NCBI GenBank assembly: GCA_041660005.1
Contig: JBAZXG010000002.1
Location: 122,037 to 186,036 of the forward strand
From: Patescibacteria group bacterium
Lineage (GTDB): Bacteria > Patescibacteriota > Patescibacteriia > GWA2-46-9
Direction of reading: 5' to 3'
Length of the DNA: 64,000 nt
This document shows positions 6,459-60,418 of this stretch, in pieces. The first letter of the stretch is position 1. Each line of letters starts with the position of its first letter. A program made the translations under genes and the position numbers. Under the pieces are notes generated by a model. That model was not told the DNA's origin, ran no database searches, and worked only from the letters and a program-made list of their open reading frames with translations.

Positions 6459-7256
6459 ATGAAAGAGTTTTTGTTGCCAATGTATCTCGTGGGTATGGGT
6501 ACAGGGAGCGGTTCGACTCTTGCGGCCATAGAATTGGCGACCAAGGAAGGCGGTCCTTTGCATGGACTCGTCAGGATGGTCCTCGCAATCGCCACCAACG
6601 CCGAGGCCGGCCTCATCAAGAGGTTGACCGATCTTGGCATGGAGGAAGGCGAGAACCTTCTGGTCATGCCGTACAAGAAGGAGAAGTCCGAACAGTGGGG
6701 TCGGGACATTCTCCGGCGGTGCCGCGCATTCGGCGCAAATCAGTTCGGACTTTTCGGCTGTGTCCCGACGGTACCAGAGTCATGCATTGAAGCACTGATT
6801 ACCGACGGCGTGCGCTGCACAAACCAACATCCTGCGTGACCGAGAGAGTTCGGTGGCGTCGGCATGATTGGGAAACGCGCAGTGGCGGCGCAGCTCCTTT
6901 TTGAGAGGATGTTGCCTCGCGGGAACGACTTCACCGCTGCTGCCGTTTGCCAAGAGTTGGATCCCGCTGTCGACGGCGGGCGCGTTCTTCACTACGAGCG
7001 CTGCCCTATCCTCGACACCGACGACGCTGAATCGCTTCAGAAGCGGCTGCTCACGATCGAGCACAAGGTGCAGATCGAAGCGCTGCGTCGAGCAGCACTC
7101 GGTGAGCTCATTCCTGTCGAGTATCCTTCGCCAGTGAAGGCGGGGGAAGAAACTCGCTGTCGCTGGGCGAAAGAGGCGGCATTTGCTTTGTACCGCGAGG
7201 GCATTCCGTACCGGAAGTCTCTTGCTCAGATCTGGGCGCAGCAAGCCGCTCTATAG
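6459..7256 (+). pseudogene. phosphoribosylglycinamide formyltransferase-like (PurN family) interrupted by an in-frame TGA at 6837-6839; GC-rich
   Basis: ORF 6459..6839 (GTGSGSTLAAIELA ... NQHPA*) and same-frame ORF 6864..7256 (LPRGNDFTAAAV...DTDDAESLQKRLLTIEHKVQIEAL) together cover the PurN/formyltransferase fold; the two halves are in the same frame, separated by one TGA. Confidence 0.6.
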
Positions 7257-8583: not shown

Positions 8584-8665
8584 AAGGAGGGTTCAAACAG
8601 AACACAAGGAGGGAAGGCGGCGTTGTCACAGGGCAACGCCGTTTTTCCATGAGGAATATTTTGTG
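8584..8665 (+). repeat. about 80-bp unit containing an RBS-like aaggaggg and a rho-independent terminator (cggcgttg...caacgccg + TTTTT); copy 1 of 2
   Basis: Near-identical to 9209..9290; hairpin CGGCGTTG/CAACGCCG followed by gttttt. Confidence 0.75.
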
Positions 8666-9208: not shown

Positions 9209-9290
9209 AAGGAGGGTCAAACAGAACATGAGGAGGGAAGGCGGCGTTGTCACAGGGCAACGCCGTTTTTCCATGAGAGGAATTTTGTCC
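9209..9290 (+). repeat. 80-bp terminator-containing unit, copy 2 of 2
   Basis: Matches 8584..8665. Confidence 0.75.
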
Positions 9291-9662
9291 ATTTCTTTGT
9301 GCGGGCAAAGAAATGGACGAAAGAAAGCCCGCCCCGCATCGACGCTCCAGGTCGGCAGTCATTCCGAAACAAACACGGCGGCAATGAACTCGCCTTCAGC
9401 TCAAACAGCATTGCCGCTCAGTCGTGTTCGTTTCGTCTGTCTGTTCTCCCCGGTCGATGAGGGGGTGTTGCAGAGTCCAAATCCCATAGGATCGGCGTCA
9501 GAGCTTGCGATGGAAGTGAGTGCTCTAATCTTTTAGGAGACGGTCGTGGTAATGCGAACAGGGTCTGTGGCGTTTGCTAGTTGTTGATAATTTTTGACTT
9601 GCAGTTTTGCCTTTTGATTTTTGAATTACTACTTACCTGTGCAGCCCGAGGACGTTATGTTT
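9289..9662. repeat. R1 composite structured element, copy A (begins with hairpin ccatttctttg-tgcgggca-caaagaaatgg, ends ...cagcccgaggacgttatg)
   Basis: Shares modules with 30523..31007, 48861..49290, 60020..60356: the covarying stem module (c/a)atgaactcg(y)c...caaacagcat; the piece cccataggatcggcgtcagagcttgc (inverted relative to copy D); and gttgataatttttgacttgcagttttg shared with copy B. Confidence 0.8.
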
Positions 9663-16692: not shown

Positions 16693-16769
16693 TGGTGCCC
16701 TCGGCAGGAATCGAACCTGCAACCTTATGGGTAGAAACCATACGCTCTATCCAATTGAGCTACGAGGGC
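16693..16769 (-). tRNA. tRNA-Arg (anticodon UCU)
   Basis: Minus-strand cloverleaf GCCCUCG...CGAGGGC-A-CCA, D arm GCUC-AAUUGGAUA-GAGC, anticodon stem UAUGG/CCAUA loop UUUCUAC, T arm GCAGG-UUCGAUU-CCUGC. Confidence 0.85.
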
Positions 16770-16917: not shown

Positions 16918-17035
16918 ATTATTTATTTTTGCCAATACCTCGTCGGCTTGCCGCGAAGATGTCATATACTGAGGCAAAAATATCCCTCGTAGCCGAGTTT
17001 GACTCGGCGAAGTGGGATTACCTAGTTTTCCCGTG
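16918..17035. repeat. R2 structured element, copy 1 (atttttgcc...cctcgtcggcttgccgcgagg...ggcaaaaat...gcgaagtgggattacct)
   Basis: Same element at 30231..30390 and 47963..48054; nested inverted repeats (9-bp outer stem, inner hairpin CCTCG(T)CGG-CTTG-CCGCGAGG). Confidence 0.8.
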
Positions 17036-17983
17036 AAACTGTTCGTGAACGTGACGCAGCTGTTGGTCGGTGAGGTGCGTGTAAATTTGCGTTGTGGTTA
17101 CTGAAGCGTGACCAAGAAGACTCTGCACTGACCGAAGATCAGCACCGTTAATAAGAAGGTCAGTGGCGAACGAGTGGCGGAGCGTATGCGGGCTCACTTT
17201 TTTTGTGATGCCGGCAACCTTGGCGTAGCGGCTGACGATGCGTTCAATACTGCGTGGTGTTAGTGGTGCGCCGCCCTCTTTGCGCTCGCGTTCCGTTTGT
17301 TTTGTCTTGGCGCGATCGTGGCGAATAAAAAGATAGGGCGAGGCGTCATGTCGCGCTTCAATATAAGAGCGAAGCAGCGCACGAGCGTCAGAAGAAAGAA
17401 ATACCACGCGCACCTTGCTACCCTTACCACGAACGCTGAATTCGGTGAGTGTATGCGCTTTGGTGTCGCGCAGGTTCACTTGGTCAATTTTTAAGTTTGC
17501 CAACTCAGAGACGCGCAGACCAGTTGAAAATGTTGATGCCAGCATCGCTTGGTCGCGTAGCATGAGAATTTTGGGCTGCTTCACGAGCGTTGGCGCGTTA
17601 AGTAGGCGTTCTAGTTCCGTGCTACTTAGAAATTCAATGGAGCGATCTGGCATTTTCATGAGTTCAATTTTCTCTGGCGCGAGACTCGTGACATCGCGCT
17701 TCGCTAGATATTTCAAAAATGAGCGCAGAGCAATGAGATGGTAATTCTGTGTATTTTTTTTAAGCGACTCACCCCGCGCATCAGTTAAACGATTCAGCCA
17801 TAGGCGATATTGCCGTATCAGCTCCGCGGATAGGTCTTTCGCATTTTTACTGCCACGTTCCTCGGCCCAGGCAACAAACCGATCAAGGTAGAAACTATAA
17901 TTGCGAATAGTCGCCGCGCTGCGGTTTCTTTCTATTTCTAAATATTCTAAAAATTCTTTGCGATAACGTTCGAGGTCGGCCAT
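17018..17983 (-). CDS. tyrosine recombinase XerC/XerD family
   Basis: C-terminal catalytic HTLRHSFATDLL...LLGHASVTTTQIYTH; N-terminal core-binding domain; start at MADLERY. Confidence 0.85.
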   Translation of the reverse strand: MADLERYRKEFLEYLEIERNRSAATIRNYSFYLDRFVAWAEERGSKNAKDLSAELIRQYRLWLNRLTDARGESLKKNTQNYHLIALRSFLKYLAKRDVTSLAPEKIELMKMPDRSIEFLSSTELERLLNAPTLVKQPKILMLRDQAMLASTFSTGLRVSELANLKIDQVNLRDTKAHTLTEFSVRGKGSKVRVVFLSSDARALLRSYIEARHDASPYLFIRHDRAKTKQTERERKEGGAPLTPRSIERIVSRYAKVAGITKKVSPHTLRHSFATDLLINGADLRSVQSLLGHASVTTTQIYTHLTDQQLRHVHEQFHGKTR

Positions 17984-18611
17984 AGCAGTATTGTACGACA
18001 CAACAGAGTGTGTGGCTACTTTACATCGAAGATGACTTTGCGTTGATGCAGTGTTGCGTCGTGAGGAAGGAATAGTGCTGCGCGACGTGGTGTTGCTATT
18101 TTTGGCTGGCACGGTCGAGGGTTACTATTCAACACGTTATTAGGTCTATATCCTTTCACTCCTGAAGTTTACTGAAGGACATCTCCACAAGAAGAGGGCA
18201 AGAAGTTTGACCGCTCGTTTTCCGTCGCACACTACCGTGACCCATAAACCAATGGTGTTCGAGCGACATCACAAGGCTAGTATCTCTCGAAGTGAAGCCA
18301 TGATCGTGTCTGCATAAGCTGGATACAAAAAGCTGTGAATATTGAGAGAAAAAGAAAAAGACCCCCCGGCGCAGAGAAAAAATTTGCGCCGAAGGGTCGA
18401 GGTGATCGAGGATCAAGTCCTCAATTCGATCGAATGAATTGTGCTGTTACTACTGCACAAACGCGGACGCTCCTCCATAGCGTTTGTCTGTGTCGCCTTC
18501 TGCAAAACTAATATCGTAATCGAGTCGGCCGTTACGGATGCGCCAGTGGGCAGCCCCATAGAAGGATAAACCGGAGCCGCCGTAGTTACGGCGGAGGCGG
18601 AAAGACCACAC

Positions 18612-30210: not shown

Positions 30211-30240
30211 TCTCCGGCCTCTGGCCGGAGTTTATTTTTG
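30211..30240 (+). terminator. recA terminator (ctccggcc-tc-tggccggag + TTTATTTTT) overlapping the start of R2 copy 2
   Basis: Perfect 8-bp stem followed by T-run. Confidence 0.65.
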
Positions 30241-30390
30241 CCTAACCACCTCGTCGGCTTGCCGCGAGGTTACCGTTGCAGAAGACAAAAATATCCCGCG
30301 TAGCTCCCTGACCGTCCGTAGCCTTGCTGTGTCCCGCCGTAGTTTTATACGAGCGGGAGCGAAGGAGGTTAGCGAAGTGGGATTACCTAT
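30231..30390. repeat. R2 structured element, copy 2 (expanded by an internal insertion of about 70 bp)
   Basis: tttatttttgcctaaccacctcgtcggcttgccgcgagg ... gcgaagtgggattacct. Confidence 0.8.
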
Positions 30391-30522: not shown

Positions 30523-31007
30523 AACCTCGCCCCGTCTGACGGGGCTGTGGGTTGCCTACTTTCTTACTCGCCTAAGAAAGTAGGCGGAAAGAACGGCGCC
30601 CCTGTGTCGACACTATCGTCGGCGAACGTTCCTCAGTGCGGGTGGCGACAATGAACTCGTCTTCGTCTCAAACAGCATCGTCGCTTATTCACCCGCACTT
30701 CGTCCGTTCGCTCTCCTCGGTCGGCAATGGGGTTTGGCAGAGTGAAGTGAACAATTCCTTTAGGAAACGGCCGTGGTAACGGGAGCGGCGTCTACGGTGT
30801 TTATTTGCAGTTGATAATTTTTGACTTGCAGTTTTGACTTTTGCCTTTTGATTTATAATTTCTGCTAGCCCATACAGCTCGAGGACGTTATGTTTATGTA
30901 ATGAAACTCCTACAGGATCGGCGTCGGTAATGACCGAAGAGGAACATTCAGGGCGGGATTTCTTTCACCTCTTTCCTTGTCTAAACAAAGAAAGGAGTAC
31001 GGTTTCT
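30523..31007. repeat. R1 composite structured element, copy B
   Basis: hairpin ctactttctta-ctcgcc-taagaaagtag, module gacaatgaactcgtc...caaacagcatcgtcgc, gttgataatttttgacttgcagttttg, cagctcgaggacgttatg, ctcctacaggatcggcgtc, terminal hairpin. Confidence 0.8.
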
Positions 31008-34754: not shown

Positions 34755-34900
34755 TTATTGTTGTGTGGGTATTGAACTGCCTCGACGTTATGTCGGGGCA
34801 GTTTTATTTTTGCCGAGGATAGTGAGTGGAGTACAAACAGTAATTTGTATTTCCGAACGACGCAGGCATCAAAGGGTTTAGTATCCATGTATTATGTTTT

Positions 34901-34936
34901 TTACACCATTTTGTGCGTACGCACAAAATGGTGTAA
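34901..34936. repeat. 36-bp perfect palindrome P, copy 1 (TTACACCATTTTGTGC-GTAC-GCACAAAATGGTGTAA)
   Basis: Identical sequence at 47900..47935; flanking tattatgttttt is also shared in inverted orientation. Confidence 0.9.
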
Positions 34937-35025
34937 TTTGACACTTACGTAGCTCTGCCGCGTCGCCTTTCTCAATACGCCGGTGGGCGTATTGAGGGAG
35001 CCAGGGCTTTGCCTTGAGGTAGTTG

Positions 35026-45628: not shown

Positions 45629-46423
45629 ATGATTGGCGTCTTCGACTCCGGAGTCGGAGGGCTTACGGTTCTTAAAGAAATTCATAAAGAGCTGCCGGGG
45701 TACGACACGATTTATTTTGGCGACTCGGCCCGTTACCCCTATGGTAACTTGAGTGATGCTGTACTGAAGCAGTATGCAACTGAGGATGCTCAATTTTTGG
45801 TTTCTAAAGGAGCCAAAGTTATTGTCGTTGCCTGTAACAGCGCATCGGTTGCGGCGGGAGATTTGCTTCGTACAAATTTGTCAGTGCCCGTGTTTGATGT
45901 TTCGCGTGCGCCAATAGAAAAAGCACTTCAAGTAACGAAGAATAAAAAAATTGCCGTTATCGGTACGCGCGCCACAATTGCCAGCCATAGACATGAACAA
46001 TTGTTAACCGAAGAGGATAGCTCGGTGAAGGTTTTTGCCGTGGCGACGCCACTGCTTGTTCCGCTTGTTGAGGAGCGTGCCTGGCGCTACCCGGAAGCCA
46101 TGCGCATTCTGCGTCGCTATTTGCGGCCGTTGAAAGACGCTCAAGTTGATACGCTCATCTTGGGGTGTACACACTATCCGCTTATTGAAAAACAGATTCA
46201 GCGCATTATGGGAAAGCGTGTGCATATTGTGAGTTCTGGTCGTGCCACCGCTGAAGCATTGAGGACTTATTTAGAAAACAATCAAGAGAGAGCAGTGGCG
46301 GTAAGTCAAAAAGGGCAGGAATATTATTTTGTAAGCGGGGACGTTCAGCAGTTTAAGCAGACTGCAGCCGAGTGGCTCGGTAAAAAAATTACTGCGACCT
46401 CAGCCGCGGCGCTGAATGTCTAA
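45629..46423 (+). CDS. murI: glutamate racemase
   Basis: IGVFDSGVGGLTV, ACNSAS, GCTHYP motifs; start at MIGVFDSG. Confidence 0.85.
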   Translation: MIGVFDSGVGGLTVLKEIHKELPGYDTIYFGDSARYPYGNLSDAVLKQYATEDAQFLVSKGAKVIVVACNSASVAAGDLLRTNLSVPVFDVSRAPIEKALQVTKNKKIAVIGTRATIASHRHEQLLTEEDSSVKVFAVATPLLVPLVEERAWRYPEAMRILRRYLRPLKDAQVDTLILGCTHYPLIEKQIQRIMGKRVHIVSSGRATAEALRTYLENNQERAVAVSQKGQEYYFVSGDVQQFKQTAAEWLGKKITATSAAALNV

Positions 46424-47807
46424 AGAAAACGTTATGTCGTGGCAAGGAAAACAGGTCGCCATCATTGGCTTTGGCATAGAAGGAGAAGCGGCTCTTGATT
46501 ATCTTATTAAAAATGGTGCCAAGGTTACTGTTTGCGACAAGATCGACGAGGCGGCTTTAGGAGATCGTTATACGCGCTCACGCGAAAAAGTTGAAGCGTG
46601 GCAGTTAGGCGCCGATTACCTCCATAAACTAAAAGAAGTTGATGCAGTTTTTCGAAGTCCTGGTACTCCTTTTTACAGCGTAGAAATTCAGGAAGCGCTC
46701 AAGAGTGGCGTTCAAATTACGAGCGGCACCAAAGAGTTTTTTCAAAATTGTCCGGCGCGCATTGTCGGTGTAACCGGCACCAAAGGCAAAGGGACAACCG
46801 CAACGCTCATTTATGAGATGCTCAAAGCCGCCGGTCAGCGAGCGTATCTCGTTGGTAATATTGGCAAACCAGCGCTATCTGTGTTGCCTGAACTTACCAA
46901 AGAGGACATTGTGGTGTTTGAGCTTTCTAGTTTTCAGCTGCAGGACCTTGATTCCTCGCCCTCAATCGCCGTTGTTCTTGGGGTAACGGTTGACCACCAA
47001 GATCATCATGCTTCGGTTGAAGAGTACGAAGAGTCCAAGAGTGCAATTGTCCGTTTTCAAAAGGAAGAAGATGTTACAATTACCAACATCGATTATCCGG
47101 CAAGTGAACGCATTGCCGCCGAGACAAAAGGGAGACTCGTGCCCGTGAGTACTGCTCGCCAGCTTGAGTATGGAGTGTATGTTGCTGATGGAAACATCAT
47201 GCAAAATATTGGAGGCAGCCCCATCAGTATTGTCGCTTTAAACGAAATAGGGCTGCGTGGTGCATTCAACGCTGAGAATGTGGTTGCGGCTGTGGCAGCC
47301 GGGAGCGTTTTAGGAATTGAAGAAGAAACAATTGCGGCGGTGCTTAGGATCTTCACCGGGTTGCCGCATCGCTTAGAATTTGTGCGAGACGTACGAGGTG
47401 TCATGTATTGGGATAATTCTTATGCCACAACCCCCGAGACAACGGTTGCAGCCATTCAATCCTTTAAGGAGCCGATCGTGCTTTTACTTGGTGGCTACGA
47501 AAAAGGATTTAATTATCGTGCACTTGCTGACGGCGTTGTGGCCAGTTCAGTGAAAGCTATTGTTGGCATTGGCAAGAACGCACCGCAAATGTATGAAGCA
47601 GTACAAGTTGCAGCTAGTAAGGCTGGTAAATCTGCGCCGCAGTATATTGAAGGAGGAGAAACGATGTCGAGTATGATTAGTGCTGCAAATAGCGTAGCGG
47701 TTTCGGAAGACGTCGTGTTGCTGTCTCCGGCTGCCGCCAGTTTTGATAAGTTTAAAAATGTAACTGACCGAGGAGAGCAATTCAAAAAAGTAGTAGAGAG
47801 TCTATAA
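46416..47807 (+). CDS. murD: UDP-N-acetylmuramoylalanine--D-glutamate ligase
   Basis: GVTGTKGKGTTATLI P-loop, Mur ligase middle and C domains. Confidence 0.9.
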   Translation: MSKENVMSWQGKQVAIIGFGIEGEAALDYLIKNGAKVTVCDKIDEAALGDRYTRSREKVEAWQLGADYLHKLKEVDAVFRSPGTPFYSVEIQEALKSGVQITSGTKEFFQNCPARIVGVTGTKGKGTTATLIYEMLKAAGQRAYLVGNIGKPALSVLPELTKEDIVVFELSSFQLQDLDSSPSIAVVLGVTVDHQDHHASVEEYEESKSAIVRFQKEEDVTITNIDYPASERIAAETKGRLVPVSTARQLEYGVYVADGNIMQNIGGSPISIVALNEIGLRGAFNAENVVAAVAAGSVLGIEEETIAAVLRIFTGLPHRLEFVRDVRGVMYWDNSYATTPETTVAAIQSFKEPIVLLLGGYEKGFNYRALADGVVASSVKAIVGIGKNAPQMYEAVQVAASKAGKSAPQYIEGGETMSSMISAANSVAVSEDVVLLSPAAASFDKFKNVTDRGEQFKKVVESL

Positions 47808-47899
47808 ATGGTATTAACCCCATAGAAAGTCCCGGAGCATTTTATCTGCCACCGAGCGAACTGAAAAAGGGAGTGCGACAGAGCTACGTAAGTATCAAA

Positions 47900-47935
47900 T
47901 TACACCATTTTGTGCGTACGCACAAAATGGTGTAA
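47900..47935. repeat. 36-bp perfect palindrome P, copy 2
   Basis: Identical to 34901..34936. Confidence 0.9.
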
Positions 47936-47962
47936 AAAACATAATAAGTGATATTTAACCCT

Positions 47963-48054
47963 TTATTTTTGCCAATACCTCGTCGGCTTGCCGCGAGGTT
48001 ACCATATACTGAGGCAAAAATATCCCTCGTAGCTTTAGCGAAGTGGGATTACCT
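47963..48054. repeat. R2 structured element, copy 3
   Basis: ctttatttttgccaatacctcgtcggcttgccgcgaggttaccatatactgaggcaaaaatatccctcgtagctttagcgaagtgggattacct. Confidence 0.85.
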
Positions 48055-48133
48055 ATGTATACCCCGTCCCCTTTAGGGCGGGGTAATTGACTTGCCTGCG
48101 TCGGCTCGAAGACCCGGCAGTAAAGTTTTGATC

Positions 48134-48165
48134 CCCCGGACGCGCATTGTGTGGCGCGTCCGGGG
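48134..48165. other. GC-rich hairpin ccccggacgcgc-attgtgtg-gcgcgtccgggg (member of a CCCCGRRCGCGC...GCGCGYYCGGGG hairpin family downstream of small minus-strand genes)
   Basis: 12-bp perfect stem; no clear U-tract. Confidence 0.5.
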
Positions 48166-48198
48166 TATCGGGTTCGTAGCGTTGTCGCAGGAGAAGAG

Positions 48199-48333
48199 TT
48201 ATGTGTCCTCTTCAAACAAATCGGGTTTGAACATGCCGAACAGCTCTTCTTGCAGCCAATCAGGCAACCAAACGACGATTAGCACGACACCTGCGATGAT
48301 TACGAAAGCTACAACTGCCTTGAGTCTGCCCAT
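48199..48333 (-). CDS. small membrane peptide (44 aa) MGRLKAVVAFVIIAGVVLIVVWLPDWLQEELFGMFKPDLFEEDT
   Basis: Hand-translated; RBS ggagga 7 nt upstream; one TM helix; below the 60-aa ORF-track cutoff. Confidence 0.5.
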   Translation of the reverse strand: MGRLKAVVAFVIIAGVVLIVVWLPDWLQEELFGMFKPDLFEEDT

Positions 48334-48430
48334 GGTGATCCTCCGGCAAGACGTTTTTTGTTGTTACGGATGGCGCTAGTTTACACTCATGAATAACGCG
48401 GTCAAGTAAGTTTGTTTATAAAATTTTGAA

Positions 48431-48465
48431 CCCCGAGCGCGCTTGTGCATAACGCGCGCTCGGGG
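48431..48465 (-). terminator. rho-independent terminator for the small-peptide operon (ccccgagcgcgc-loop-gcgcgctcgggg, then U-run on minus strand)
   Basis: 12-bp GC stem followed on the minus strand by ttcaaaattt. Confidence 0.65.
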
Positions 48466-48477
48466 TTCGGGTTGTAC

Positions 48478-48600
48478 CTACACTCGCCAGTAGAAGTAAG
48501 TGTAGGTAACTAGAACGGCGAGGGCTCCGAAAATCCAGCGAAGCTGGACCAATTCGCTGTGGTTTTTCGGATCCCTCCAATAGGCAATGAATTCCCTCAT
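48478..48600 (-). CDS. small membrane peptide (40 aa) MREFIAYWRDPKNHSELVQLRWIFGALAVLVTYTYFYWRV
   Basis: Hand-translated; RBS gggagg upstream; immediately followed by terminator hairpin. Confidence 0.5.
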   Translation of the reverse strand: MREFIAYWRDPKNHSELVQLRWIFGALAVLVTYTYFYWRV

Positions 48601-48636
48601 AGCATGCTTCCTCCCTCTCAAGAGTATCTACGCGTG

Positions 48637-48780
48637 CTAGTCCGCGCGGATTCTTGATACCCATTCATTCAGGAGCCATATCCCGTCGTATACAGCAAAC
48701 AGCAGAAGTACGCCGAGTATTACGAGTTCAGGAGTAATACTCGGTTGGTCGTTATGCGTGGAATCGTCGGTCGGTCTCAT
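48637..48780 (-). CDS. small membrane peptide (47 aa) MRPTDDSTHNDQPSITPELVILGVLLLFAVYDGIWLLNEWVSRIRAD
   Basis: Hand-translated; RBS ggaggg upstream; one TM helix; apparently co-transcribed with the 48478..48600 peptide. Confidence 0.5.
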   Translation of the reverse strand: MRPTDDSTHNDQPSITPELVILGVLLLFAVYDGIWLLNEWVSRIRAD

Positions 48781-48860
48781 GCAGTCCCTCCTGGTTTTTT
48801 GCACTGCTGCAGATTAAAATTAGTTTAACGTTATTAAAGACAAAATCAAGTTCAAATTGT

Positions 48861-49290
48861 CCACTTTCTTACTTGTCTAAGAAAGTGGACGGAAAGAATG
48901 ACACCCTGAGGACTCGGCTGTGGGCTTGCTTCATACAGCAGACTGCTGACCATGAACTCGTCATCCGCCCCATAGCGGATTCCTCAAACAGCATGGTCAC
49001 TAAGTGCAGTCTGCTTCCCTCGCAAGCTTTGACGCCGATCCTAAGGGATTTTGCACTCTGCTCTGCCAAACCCCTGGTGTCCGGTCGTGGCAATGAGGAC
49101 GAAGACAGGACGAAAGAAAACAAGAGCATGTGTGAGATGAACCACAAGGTGAGGCGAGTTTGCTCTTGTTCGTCCTGCTGAGGAAGGAATGCCCGACCGG
49201 AGCACCCGGGGCGGGCTTCTTTGGGTACTTTCTTGCCCGCACAAGAAAGTACCAACTAGTCGCGAGGGCACAGCCCGAGGACGTTATGAG
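48861..49290. repeat. R1 composite structured element, copy C
   Basis: hairpin ccactttctta-cttgtc-taagaaagtgg; cctgaggactcggctgtgggcttgcttc; gaccatgaactcgtc...caaacagcatggtca; gacgccgatcctaaggg; hairpin gtactttcttg-cccgca-caagaaagtac; cagcccgaggacgttatg. Confidence 0.8.
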
Positions 49291-49341
49291 TTAAAGAAAA
49301 AGAAATGAAAAATCAAATTAAAAACAGCTGTAAATTTATAT

Positions 49342-49375
49342 CCCCGGGCGCGCACTCTATAGCACGCGTCCGGGG
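49342..49375 (-). terminator. terminator-like GC hairpin downstream of the Flp pilin gene (ccccgggcgcgc...cgcgtccgggg) with AT-rich tail on the minus strand
   Basis: Same hairpin family as 48134..48165 and 48431..48465. Confidence 0.5.
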
Positions 49376-49427
49376 CGGGTCGGGTGGCGAAGTCCGCCAG
49401 CTGGCGGATTCTCCGCCGGCTGCGAGC

Positions 49428-49580
49428 TCAGTTGGTCGTCGGAACGACCGGTGCCAGTTGCTGCGAACCGACGACGCTCATGGCCACGATGGCCGCGATC
49501 GAAATCAGTGCGGCGAGCAGAGCGTACTCAGCGACCGTCGCCGCGGTCTCGTCTTTCAAGAAAGCAACAAAACGTTCCAT
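49428..49580 (-). CDS. Flp/Fap-family type IVb (Tad) pilin (50 aa) MERFVAFLKDETAATVAEYALLAALISIAAIVAMSVVGSQQLAPVVPTTN
   Basis: Hand-translated. Characteristic Flp motif FLKDE..A.EYALLAALI followed by a hydrophobic helix; RBS gaggga upstream; GC-rich. Confidence 0.65.
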   Translation of the reverse strand: MERFVAFLKDETAATVAEYALLAALISIAAIVAMSVVGSQQLAPVVPTTN

Positions 49581-49728
49581 GTTTTTCCCTCGAGGTCGAT
49601 TTCCGTACTACTGTCGTACGGATGGCTCGTAGGTTACACATACAAATATTTCATGTCAACTTTTTCGTAAATAAAAAAGAGTCGCCACACACGGGGCGAC
49701 TCTTTTTTATAAAGATTAAATTTACTTT

Positions 49729-50991
49729 TTATCCTCGGGCTTTCATCGCAGCTTCTAGCCGTTCCAGTGCCAGAATAAACGCCGCTACGCGCATGGTTGT
49801 TTTATACTTTTCTTTTCTTTCCCACACCGCGTTAAAGGCATCTTTCATAATTGGCTCCAGCTTGCTTCGCACTTCTTTTTTGGGCCAATAGTACCCTTGC
49901 CTGTTCTGCACCCATTCAAAGTACGAAACCGTAACGCCTCCAGAGTTTGCCAAAATGTCCGGAACGACAACGACTTTTTTCTTTGCCAATTTTTTGTCAG
50001 CATTTGGCGTTGTTGGCCCGTTGGCAAGCTCTAACACAACCTTAGCTTTGATGCGTGAAACATTCTTTTCTGTTATTTGGTTTTCAAGCGCTGCTGGGAT
50101 CAAAATATCGCAACTTGTTTCGAGCAGCTGTTTGTTACTGACGTGCTTATAATTTTTATTATCACAGACAGCGTCAACGCAGTAGACGCCATCAATATGA
50201 CCCAGCTCTTGCTTTCTCTTTAGGACATTTTTTGGGTCCATACCATTCTTTTTGAGATCAACAATTCCGCCGCTAGAATCAGACAAGCCGACAATCTTGA
50301 ATCCGGCTTTGTGCACCAGCTCAGCCATGTTGTAGCCGGCGTTTCCCAACCCCTGGATAATGACAGTTGTTTTTTGCGGTACTAGTTTCAATTTTTTTGC
50401 TAACTCTTCAAGCACCATAAAGCCACCGTCGGCAGTTGCTGTGTCTCGACCCTTTGATCCGCCGAGTGCTAAGGGTTTACCAGTTACAACAGCCGGCTCC
50501 AGGTGGCCAACCATTTGACTGTATTCGTCCATGATCCAACCCATAATCTCGGCAGTGGTGTTGACGTCAGGGGCAGGGACATCGCGGTCAGGTCCAAAGA
50601 CATCTTTCATGCTGCGCGTGAATGCTCTGGTCAATCGTTCTAATTCAGCGTGTGATAATGTTCTCGGGTCGACCGTAATGCCGCCCTTGCCACCACCCAT
50701 AGGAATACCAACAACCGCACATTTCATGGTCATCCACAGTGCCAGTGCTTTGACCTCATTAATATCGACTTGCTCATGATAGCGCAGGCCCCCTTTGTAT
50801 GGGCCGCGTGCGTTTGAGTGCTCAACCCGATATCCGGTAAAGAGTTTGCGTACTCCGGAGTCAAGCGTCAGCGGTATGGTTACCTCTACGATTCTCTCCG
50901 GTCGTTCGAGCTCTGAGAGTACAGTACGACTTGTCCCAGCGATAGTCCCTGCTTCACGAAGTTGCTCTAAAGCATTTTTGAATGCATTCAT
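49729..50991 (-). CDS. gdhA: NAD(P)-specific glutamate dehydrogenase
   Basis: KGGLRYH, GIPMGGGKGG, Rossmann GLGNAGY. Confidence 0.9.
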   Translation of the reverse strand: MNAFKNALEQLREAGTIAGTSRTVLSELERPERIVEVTIPLTLDSGVRKLFTGYRVEHSNARGPYKGGLRYHEQVDINEVKALALWMTMKCAVVGIPMGGGKGGITVDPRTLSHAELERLTRAFTRSMKDVFGPDRDVPAPDVNTTAEIMGWIMDEYSQMVGHLEPAVVTGKPLALGGSKGRDTATADGGFMVLEELAKKLKLVPQKTTVIIQGLGNAGYNMAELVHKAGFKIVGLSDSSGGIVDLKKNGMDPKNVLKRKQELGHIDGVYCVDAVCDNKNYKHVSNKQLLETSCDILIPAALENQITEKNVSRIKAKVVLELANGPTTPNADKKLAKKKVVVVPDILANSGGVTVSYFEWVQNRQGYYWPKKEVRSKLEPIMKDAFNAVWERKEKYKTTMRVAAFILALERLEAAMKARG

Positions 50992-59812: not shown

Positions 59813-60019
59813 GGGGAGAATAATATATTTTTCTTCTTCTATATTATAGCACCTTAAATTTGTCCTGCGATGCAGGACTGTAATTTGTTCGTTTTCGTCT
59901 TCTTAAGCTGCTAACGTCCTCGGTCCGCCGAGGTGGACCTCGCGACTGTTTGTTACTCTTTTGCGCACCCAAAATTTATTAACAAGAGCAAGTCCGCCAG
60001 AGGCGGATCCGCCTTTGGC

Positions 60020-60356
60020 GGAAAAAGGGTGCCCTGAGGACTCGGCTGTGGGCTTGCTTCGTGCAGCAGGCTGCTGACCATGAACTTGTCGCTTCGCTCC
60101 GCAAACAGCATGGTCATTAAATGCAGCCTGTTTCCCTTGCAAGCTCTGACGCCGATCCTATGGGATGAGCACTTTGCTAAACCCCATTGCCGACCGCGGA
60201 AAGCGAACGGACGAAGTGTGGGTGGTTAAGCGACGGTGTTGTTTGAAGCGGAGCAAGTTCATCGTCGCCATCCACACTGAGGAACGTTCGCCGACGAGAG
60301 TGTCGGCACAGGGCGGGCTTTCTTTCGTCTATTTCTTTGCCCGCACAAAGAAATAG
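60020..60356. repeat. R1 composite structured element, copy D (left half like copy C; right half is the reverse complement of the copy-B module)
   Basis: cctgaggactcggctgtgggcttgcttc; gaccatgaacttgtc...caaacagcatggtca; gacgccgatcctatggg; inverted B-like segment; terminal hairpin ctatttctttg-cccgca-caaagaaatag. Confidence 0.8.
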
Positions 60357-60418
60357 ACAACTTAATTTGTATTTGCGATTTCGCAAAAAATGTGCTAAAA
60401 TAAAAAAACTATCATTCT

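Follow-up and report, generated by a model that had tools for sequence, protein, structure and literature searches.

A repeat-laden intergenic island in a Patescibacteria genome, with a putatively acquired, orphan Flp-like prepilin gene and three candidate membrane microproteins

We describe here an intergenic region from a 64 kb stretch of DNA (hereafter the window) of a metagenome-assembled genome of Patescibacteria (Candidate Phyla Radiation, CPR), corresponding to about one quarter of a contig of 238,274 nt. The region is the 1.9 kb spacer between the convergent genes murD (46416-47807, plus strand) and gdhA (49729-50991, minus strand), the longest stretch of the window devoid of a long open reading frame (ORF). 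Its minus strand carries four small ORFs, called P4, P3, P2 and P1 from the gdhA to the murD side, interspersed with hairpins and repeated sequences. The reading that we favour, with moderate confidence, is that of a repeat-laden island, hosting a foreign, orphan gene for an Flp-like protein, P4, together with three lineage-specific microproteins, P1-P3. The spacer would contain three small transcription units, formed by P4, by P3 plus P2, and by P1, each translated from a Shine-Dalgarno site, a feature absent from most host genes, and each ending with a copy of a GC-rich stem-loop module of about 55 nt, a putative terminator or stabiliser of the 3' end. P4 would come from the head of the tad operon of a GC-rich bacterium, with about the first 38 donor codons surviving, and would be driven by local expression signals. 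Its product would be a poorly cleaved or uncleaved single-pass protein of the inner membrane, or else the gene a decaying relic; it would not be the major subunit of a Tad pilus. P1-P3 would be single-pass membrane microproteins of this lineage, and R1, a foldback repeat whose insertion separates the P4 unit from that of P3, would be a structured repeat unrelated to them.

The identity of P4 (49428-49580, minus strand), a 50-residue homolog of Flp-family prepilins, is supported by Pfam, by its homologs and by its codon score. It matches the Pfam Flp_Fap family (PF04964) over residues 7-42 with 38.4 bits, above the gathering cut-off of 32.2 (E-value 1.1e-9), and its nearest relatives are Flp pilins at 75% identity; the assignment to Flp made in an earlier note on this DNA, composed from the sequence, is thus upheld by the profile search. 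The 25 best database relatives are Flp proteins, 64-77% identical over 78-80% of P4, and those carrying a name belong to Candidatus Limnocylindrales. When made into a profile, these relatives align with the Tad pilins of known structure, 8U1K and 8U2B, starting at the first mature residue (ATAIEY). No match was found in NCBIfam. GenBank already names the protein (MFA5954327.1) "Flp family type IVb pilin". In its general form P4 resembles the Flp/Fap type IVb (Tad) prepilins, such as Caulobacter PilA (8U1K) and the pilins 8U2B/8UCR: it is 50 residues long, and its leader, which comprises 13 residues and ends in KDET-, is followed by the xTxxEY motif and by a helix spanning some 20 residues (ALLAALISIAAIVAMSVVG), whose hydrophobicity, with a maximal 17-residue Kyte-Doolittle mean of 2.75, fits a short prepilin, as does the overall size.

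Sequence comparison points to horizontal transfer as the most likely origin of P4, the source being the head of the tad operon of a GC-rich bacterium. Where the genomic context of relatives was retrieved, a full operon was seen to begin with one to four copies of flp, on contigs of 60-62% GC, followed by genes for an A24 peptidase, RcpC, a secretin, TadE, Tad, a TadZ-like ParA, CpaF and TadB/C. Over 109 nt, the DNA of P4 shares 82.6% identity with an flp gene that opens a tad operon on the 62%-GC contig Ga0196963_10000001. This match begins 5 nt upstream of the ATG and runs to around codon 35, with amino acid similarity stopping near codon 38; beyond it, both downstream and more than 5 nt upstream of the ATG, there is no similarity to the donor-like flp. 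Base composition points in the same direction, P4 having a GC content of 59% and, at third codon positions, of 0.71, versus about 0.45 for the host. Within codons 1-38 synonymous differences dominate, except at the processing motif, with 10 synonymous and 8 nonsynonymous changed codons. The final 12 codons, two of them for proline, bear no relation to Flp; a frameshift masking a normal Flp C-terminus was considered and discarded, as no alternative frame encodes one. An assembly or binning chimera is ruled out, because an independent assembly (Logan, SRR18595301) carries the same relA-trpS-gdhA-P4 order, extending to the hairpin downstream of P4, with the same junction between gdhA and P4.

P4 also departs from Flp prepilins in its processing motif. 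Where Flp prepilins feature the invariant G-ATAIEY-G, P4 reads A-ATVAEY-A: the junction is DETA-ATVAEY, with EY kept, and the four changes G13A, A16V, I17A and G20A (Gly to Ala at -1, AI to VA, and Gly to Ala after EY) correspond to two nucleotide substitutions each. The nine flp copies of the examined tad operons all have an intact GATAIEYG, and nearly all homologs keep those residues. The Gly at -1, the residue of the Flp motif recognised by the prepilin peptidase (A24) (PMC5430801), is found in 23 of 24 homologs and in the same nine flp copies, and P4, with its Ala, departs from the canonical G/XXXXEY pattern at exactly this position. The earlier note had remarked on the lack of this Gly, which is confirmed and extended by the other three changes in the invariant motif.

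P4 also stands isolated. Among about 55 ORFs of the 64 kb window we detected no tad, cpa or pil gene, no T2SSE ATPase motif, no other pilin motif and no A24 peptidase, and P4 is therefore regarded as an orphan, unlike Flp/Fap prepilins, which adjoin peptidase and tad genes; its unrelated 12 C-terminal residues and its presence in a Patescibacteria genome set it further apart from them. A search of the literature found no paper connecting the Candidate Phyla Radiation with pili of the Flp or Tad type. A function as Flp/Tad pilin, implied by the name given to P4 in the earlier note, is thus unsupported: no machinery is encoded within the 64 kb, and the flp genes of the relatives lie directly upstream of complete tad operons. 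Given the loss of Gly at -1 and of three more motif residues, and the lack of Tad machinery within the window, standard processing and polymerisation appear unlikely, and P4 is most likely an uncleaved or, at best, poorly cleaved single-pass membrane protein, or a relic. That Flp homologs may escape standard processing has a precedent in the trimmed Flp2 proteins of Bdellovibrio: these Flp-domain proteins lack the Gly recognised by the peptidase, keep EY and the hydrophobic stretch, begin at MxxEY and sit inside TAD loci (PMC5430801). P4 differs from them in that it keeps a full leader, with Gly replaced by Ala, and has no TAD locus nearby.

A different reading, which we deem unlikely though worthy of consideration, would make P4 a working major Tad (Flp) pilin, or a subunit fed into a type IV pilus machinery of the cell itself, matured by an Ala-tolerant A24 peptidase encoded outside the 64 kb. 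The ORF is indeed intact, with its own ribosome-binding site (RBS), candidate promoter and terminator-like hairpin; the protein scores above the Pfam cut-off and retains the hydrophobic helix as well as Glu5 and Tyr6 of the putative mature pilin. On this same side stand some of the points that weigh against the reading we favour. Another natural Flp homolog, P0025, also has Ala at -1, and in type IV pilins Ala at this position permits partial cleavage. The negative result on the Tad machinery covers the 64 kb window, about one quarter of a contig at least 238 kb long; other parts of the contig, or of the genome, could harbour a tad locus or a PilD-type peptidase. Finally, the 10:8 pattern of synonymous and nonsynonymous changes can be assigned to neither lineage. 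Against this reading stand the altered motif, where four invariant positions, including the recognition Gly, have changed by two substitutions each, a C-terminal third unrelated to Flp and containing two prolines, the missing link in the literature between such pili and the Candidate Phyla Radiation, and the location of the gene, isolated among housekeeping genes, whereas flp of all examined relatives is found immediately upstream of peptidase and tad genes.

The other three ORFs, P1 (48199-48333), P2 (48478-48600) and P3 (48637-48780), all on the minus strand, encode peptides of 44, 40 and 47 residues; these and P4 lie exactly where the earlier note had placed them. All four start with ATG and are preceded, at 6-9 nt, by a GGAGG-type RBS, as had been proposed: GGAGG at 6 nt for P1 (48340-48344) and at 9 nt for P2 (48610-48614), AGGAGG at 6 nt for P3 (48787-48792) and GAGGG at 6 nt for P4 (49587-49591, minus strand). 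Such signals are rare in this genome. A full GGAGG followed after 4-10 nt by a start codon precedes only seven ORFs of 20-90 residues in the whole window, and P1-P3 make up three of them, within 600 nt and on one strand; the remaining four either begin within long ORFs or are 24 residues long. Among the host genes, about 5 out of 50 feature a Shine-Dalgarno-type RBS. Those of the window start at 6459, 7270, 8807, 35975 and 38749, most housekeeping genes having no such sequence before a clear ATG, and the organism seems to rely mainly on Shine-Dalgarno-independent initiation.

Codon usage supports the coding nature of the four ORFs. A log-odds score, trained on 33 long genes of the window, was compared with that of 205 stop-free spurious ORFs of similar length, located inside real genes. 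The proposed frame turned out to be the best of the six in all four cases; with respect to the spurious ORFs, P1 ranks in the top 1%, P3 in the top 2%, P2 in the top 5.4%, and P4 at 0%, above all 205, and each score falls inside the range of real 47-codon windows. Each peptide contains one hydrophobic helix, with maximal 17-residue Kyte-Doolittle means between 1.6 and 3.3; among the intergenic small ORFs with an RBS, a hydrophobic segment of transmembrane (TM) length is found only in P1, P3, P4 and, more weakly, P2, the sole ones to join it with both a strong RBS and an ATG. The helix is N-terminal in P1, followed by an acidic C-tail, C-terminal in P2 and central in P3. By the positive-inside rule, P1 is predicted to have its N-terminus inside and its acidic tail outside, and P3 to expose its acidic N-terminus. 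P3 and P2 are in the same frame, 36 nt separating the stop codon of P3 from P2, and are probably co-transcribed as one operon; a fusion of the two by stop-codon read-through was discarded on inspection, two TAG stops lying in between.

The locus had been described as GC-rich relative to its flanks, which holds in part. GC-richness applies to P4, to the hairpins (76%) and to the region 3' of P4 (49376-49427, 75%); it applies neither to P1-P3, at 47-50% versus 49.5% for the window, nor to the locus overall. As to annotation, P1 and P4 are already present in GenBank, P1 as MFA5954326.1 (hypothetical protein WC817_02200), while P2 and P3 are absent from a collection of 15 billion proteins and hence unannotated.

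The transcription units appear to be delimited by three related GC-rich hairpins, found at the places indicated by the earlier note. They share the CCCCGRRCGCGC motif, which forms hairpins at this locus only (48134-48165, 48431-48465 and 49342-49375); in the whole window it has eight matches, two of them elsewhere and with one mismatch each, against 1.5 expected, a figure reached in none of 100 shuffles. Motif counts and folding define H1 (48134-48165, minus strand), with a 12-bp stem, after P1, and H2 (48428-48468, minus strand), with a 15-bp stem, after P2 and followed by UUCAAAAUUUUAU; H3 (49342-49375, minus strand) lies downstream of P4, preceded by a second hairpin (49383-49417). Each of the three falls within a homologous module some 55 nt long, ACCCGA..stem-loop-stem..T.AAA.TTTA, and the transcripts bearing them are predicted to fold with energies of -34 to -54 kcal/mol and z-scores of -4.5 to -7.6. 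Homology among the units does not extend further: a cassette-wide similarity was rejected, the hairpin module alone being common, and a motif shared by the 5' leaders of P1 and P4, GCCATCCGTA, is not above chance.

These modules recall repetitive extragenic palindromic (REP)-type palindromes, or terminators without U-tract, being GC-rich, near-perfect palindromes of a repeated family located just after stop codons. Unlike REP-type palindromes, they are present in three copies at one locus, and no RAYT-type transposase was noticed among the window ORFs scanned. They also differ from the terminator of gdhA (49671-49710, minus strand), found by scanning and folding, which is of the canonical type, with A-tract and U-tract. 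As gdhA has a terminator of its own, P4 is not expected to be expressed by read-through from it. A candidate promoter, TTGACA-17-TAACCT (49631-49659, minus strand), was recognised by eye upstream of P4, with a weak -10 element, below the threshold of the scan, and another, TTGATT-16-TAAACT (48822-48849, minus strand), upstream of P3; the promoter-like site before P1, TTGACC-16-TAAACT (48378-48405, minus strand), was found by the scan, with 9 of 12 matches. Folding of the 5' leaders revealed no unusual degree of structure, with z-scores of -0.05 for P1, +0.6 for P3 and -2.0 for P4.

In contrast to P4, P1-P3 could not be related to any known protein. None of them matches a family of Pfam, NCBIfam, PHROG or PADLOC. 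P1, compared with 1.84 billion representative proteins, matched only itself, and its exact sequence was found in no assembly searched; P3 has no word triplet in common with any of 5.8 billion clusters; and no match to P1-P3 was found at the flp loci of the P4 relatives. A search with the three concatenated peptides gave no result, and missed the very entry of P1, for which reason we treat it as unreliable. The earlier suggestion that these peptides may be pilin-like is therefore not borne out by family matches or relatives. Taken together, the intrinsic signals, namely codon usage, ATG, RBS and one TM helix each, make it plausible that P1-P3 are putative single-pass membrane microproteins specific to this lineage. 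In form they resemble AcrZ, MgrB, CydX and KdpF, small single-pass membrane proteins of bacteria, in having 40-47 residues, one TM helix and short charged tails; unlike these, they match no described family and no partner complex is encoded nearby, and no homology is claimed.

That P1-P3, or P2 and P3 at any rate, are ORFs that arose by chance, in a spacer made of non-coding repeats, hairpins and perhaps small RNAs, where GGAGG occurs incidentally, is again an unlikely but by no means trivial alternative. Here belong the other points adverse to the favoured reading. P2 and P3 were called by none of the NCBI, JGI and Logan pipelines. Scans anchored on MurD, of genome contigs and metagenome contigs, yielded no close relatives in which conservation of P1-P3 could be seen. 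Only the P1 site passes the promoter scan, and the total of sites found is not above that of shuffled sequences. H1-H3 have no U-tracts, and their role as terminators is therefore only a putative one. Besides, no homologs of P1 and P3 were found, none of the three peptides matches a family, the region is packed with repeats, and the codon score of P2 does not go beyond the top 5.4% of spurious ORFs. Chance would nevertheless have to account for three ATG-initiated ORFs that share a strand and are all preceded, at 6-9 nt, by a complete GGAGG, a combination rare in this genome, each with its proposed frame best of six and a score in the range of real genes, each with exactly one TM-length segment, and for hairpins located directly after stop codons. 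Matches to known RNA families are, moreover, missing: in the window only two tRNAs reach the Rfam gathering threshold, and nothing credible appears in 47750-49750 at E-values up to 10.

Small size, a single TM helix, charged tails, organization in separate small units and very stable RNA structures are also features of type I toxins, and P1-P3 might be toxin-like peptides of this kind, checked by antisense RNAs, or else holin- or bacteriocin-like peptides damaging membranes, the latter being the other proposal of the earlier note. We consider this very improbable. A consensus scan, which is weak evidence, found no promoter-like site on the opposite strand of the locus, and the leaders, as said, are not unusually structured. 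The defining features of holins and bacteriocins are lacking as well: no toxin or holin family of PADLOC, PHROG or Pfam is matched, no genes for phage functions, modification or export lie nearby, and a double-glycine leader is not recognizable.

About as improbable is the idea that the units are mobile gene cassettes, integron- or CALIN-like or spread in the manner of REP sequences, with the palindromic module as recombination site: the co-oriented small ORFs are each followed by a homologous palindrome found nowhere else in the window, have RBSs atypical of the host, and include the demonstrably foreign P4, and a tyrosine recombinase gene (17018-18112) adjoins an R2 repeat 94% identical to that of the locus, but the hairpins are near-perfect palindromes of 12-15 bp without the RYYYAAC/GTTRRRY cores, bulged bases and variable central region of attC sites, the recombinase lies 30 kb away and no integrase is adjacent, the module exists in three copies only, GC content and codon usage of P1-P3 are host-like, and each unit, in contrast to integron cassettes, seems to possess a promoter of its own.

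The P4 unit is parted from the P3-P2 unit by copy C of R1, one of the repeats that, together with the palindrome P and the third copy of R2, the earlier note had correctly reported at this locus. R1 copy C (48857-49255) is a foldback of two inverted R1-core units (49013-49255, minus strand, and 48857-49099, plus strand), each opening with a 14-bp hairpin, next to an end motif, AGTCGCGAGG..CCCGAGGACGTTATG (also AGTCGCGAGG..CCGAGGACGTTA), at 49256-49295 on the plus strand; with respect to this motif, the body of copy C is inverted in comparison with copies A, B and D. The cores of the four copies lie at 9285-9517 and 30552-30786 on the plus strand, and at 49013-49255 and 60130-60360 on the minus strand. 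Weaker inverted partner units are found at three of the loci (48857-49099, plus; 59993-60209, plus; 30819-31000, minus); that of copy C, which overlaps the core, is recognised with 63.5 bits by a covariance model derived from the alignment of the R1 copies. The presence of this inverted second unit leads us to regard R1 as a foldback pair of structured units.

Alignment of the four copies reveals a common 5' core of about 230 nt, for which RNAalifold predicts 53 pairs, 25 of them with compensatory changes. In the alignment 92.8% of the cells are paired, versus about 40% when the partners are slid, and covariation as strong as that observed was seen in none of 500 shuffles. On one strand, which for copy C is the minus strand, several G-U pairs do not vary. 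R1 adjoins housekeeping genes and matches no Rfam family; it could be an undescribed non-coding RNA or else a mobile repeat rich in hairpins. The notion that R1 contains a conserved ORF was rejected, the 128-residue ORF of copy C not being kept in the other copies. The R1 core motif was not encountered in a scan of viral sequences, and no functional link between R1 copy C and the peptides was found.

Further non-coding repeats fill the interval between murD and P1 (47900-48084): the palindrome P (47900-47935), perfect over 36 nt, the third R2 copy (47962-48033) and, at 48063-48084, a small hairpin. R2, which is 72 nt long and is found also at 16922-16993 and 30233-30304, has two nested conserved stems and no covariation; its first copy lies between a tRNA gene (16696-16769) and the recombinase gene mentioned above. 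An apparent match to HEARO over P and R2 was discarded as noise, having 17 bits against a cut-off of 83. P is the centre of a longer inverted repeat, a pair of 121-nt sequences (47826-47946 and 34890-35010), 81% complementary and both centred on the identical 36-nt perfect palindrome TTACACCATTTTGTGCGTACGCACAAAATGGTGTAA; one copy is found just after murD, the other near dapA. The Logan contigs of SRR18595301 end at positions 47879, in the region of P and of this inverted repeat, and 49263, inside R1 copy C, consistent with both being multi-copy repeats of the genome. A 75-nt direct repeat (8590-8664 and 9214-9288, 91% identical), consisting of AAGGAGGG followed by a canonical U-tract terminator hairpin, was observed just upstream of R1 copy A.

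Pfam confirms the flanking genes as murD and gdhA, as previously proposed, the latter encoding a Glu/Leu/Phe/Val dehydrogenase. All long ORFs of the window with a Pfam match are housekeeping or unrelated to pili, examples being ddl, mgtE, guaA, guaB, recA, ssb, pnp, ftsK, topA, dprA, relA, trpS, glyA and folD; about ten long ORFs match no Pfam family. Two adjacent ORFs upstream of purD (6459-6839 and 6864-7256), which have no Pfam match and 62% GC in the region of the short gap, together resemble, when judged by eye, a split purN-type formyltransferase, and may represent a frameshift or a pseudogene. A scan anchored on GdhA returned 80 loci, the best of which, in a Candidatus Uhrbacteria metagenome-assembled genome, shows 69% identity; in none of the 80 was there similarity to P1-P4 or to the spacer. 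Viral contigs and plasmids, too, contained nothing resembling the peptides or the spacer. The sole JGI metagenome contig obtained with the MurD query, Ga0172379_10055187, is 99.9% identical to the window over 715 nt (45938-46652) and then diverges, which may reflect a strain rearrangement or an assembly chimera.

A bolder scenario, to which we attach little probability, would connect all these elements: an ultra-small Patescibacteria symbiont would have taken two-thirds of a Tad pilin gene, counted from the 5' end, from a GC-rich bacterium, possibly its host, altered the peptidase motif, and put the gene to use at the cell surface or in host contact, expressing it together with three ORFan microproteins from a mobile or fast-evolving island of Shine-Dalgarno-led microprotein cassettes with a shared palindromic 3' module, while R1, with about 230 nt per arm, would separately be a possible new family of structured RNAs.

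The Flp identity of P4 is already recorded in GenBank. The locus opens no long-standing question and, with P1-P3 offering no functional handle, is a modest curiosity rather than a new system. P2 and P3 would add two membrane microproteins that lack annotation, and P1-P3 illustrate how the small ORFs of CPR genomes are overlooked or stay uncharacterised. Should P4 be expressed, it would represent a clear case of a Patescibacteria cell that obtained a gene for a surface filament from a GC-rich bacterium unrelated to it and subsequently changed the processing site, and would bear on how reduced symbionts gain components of their envelope.

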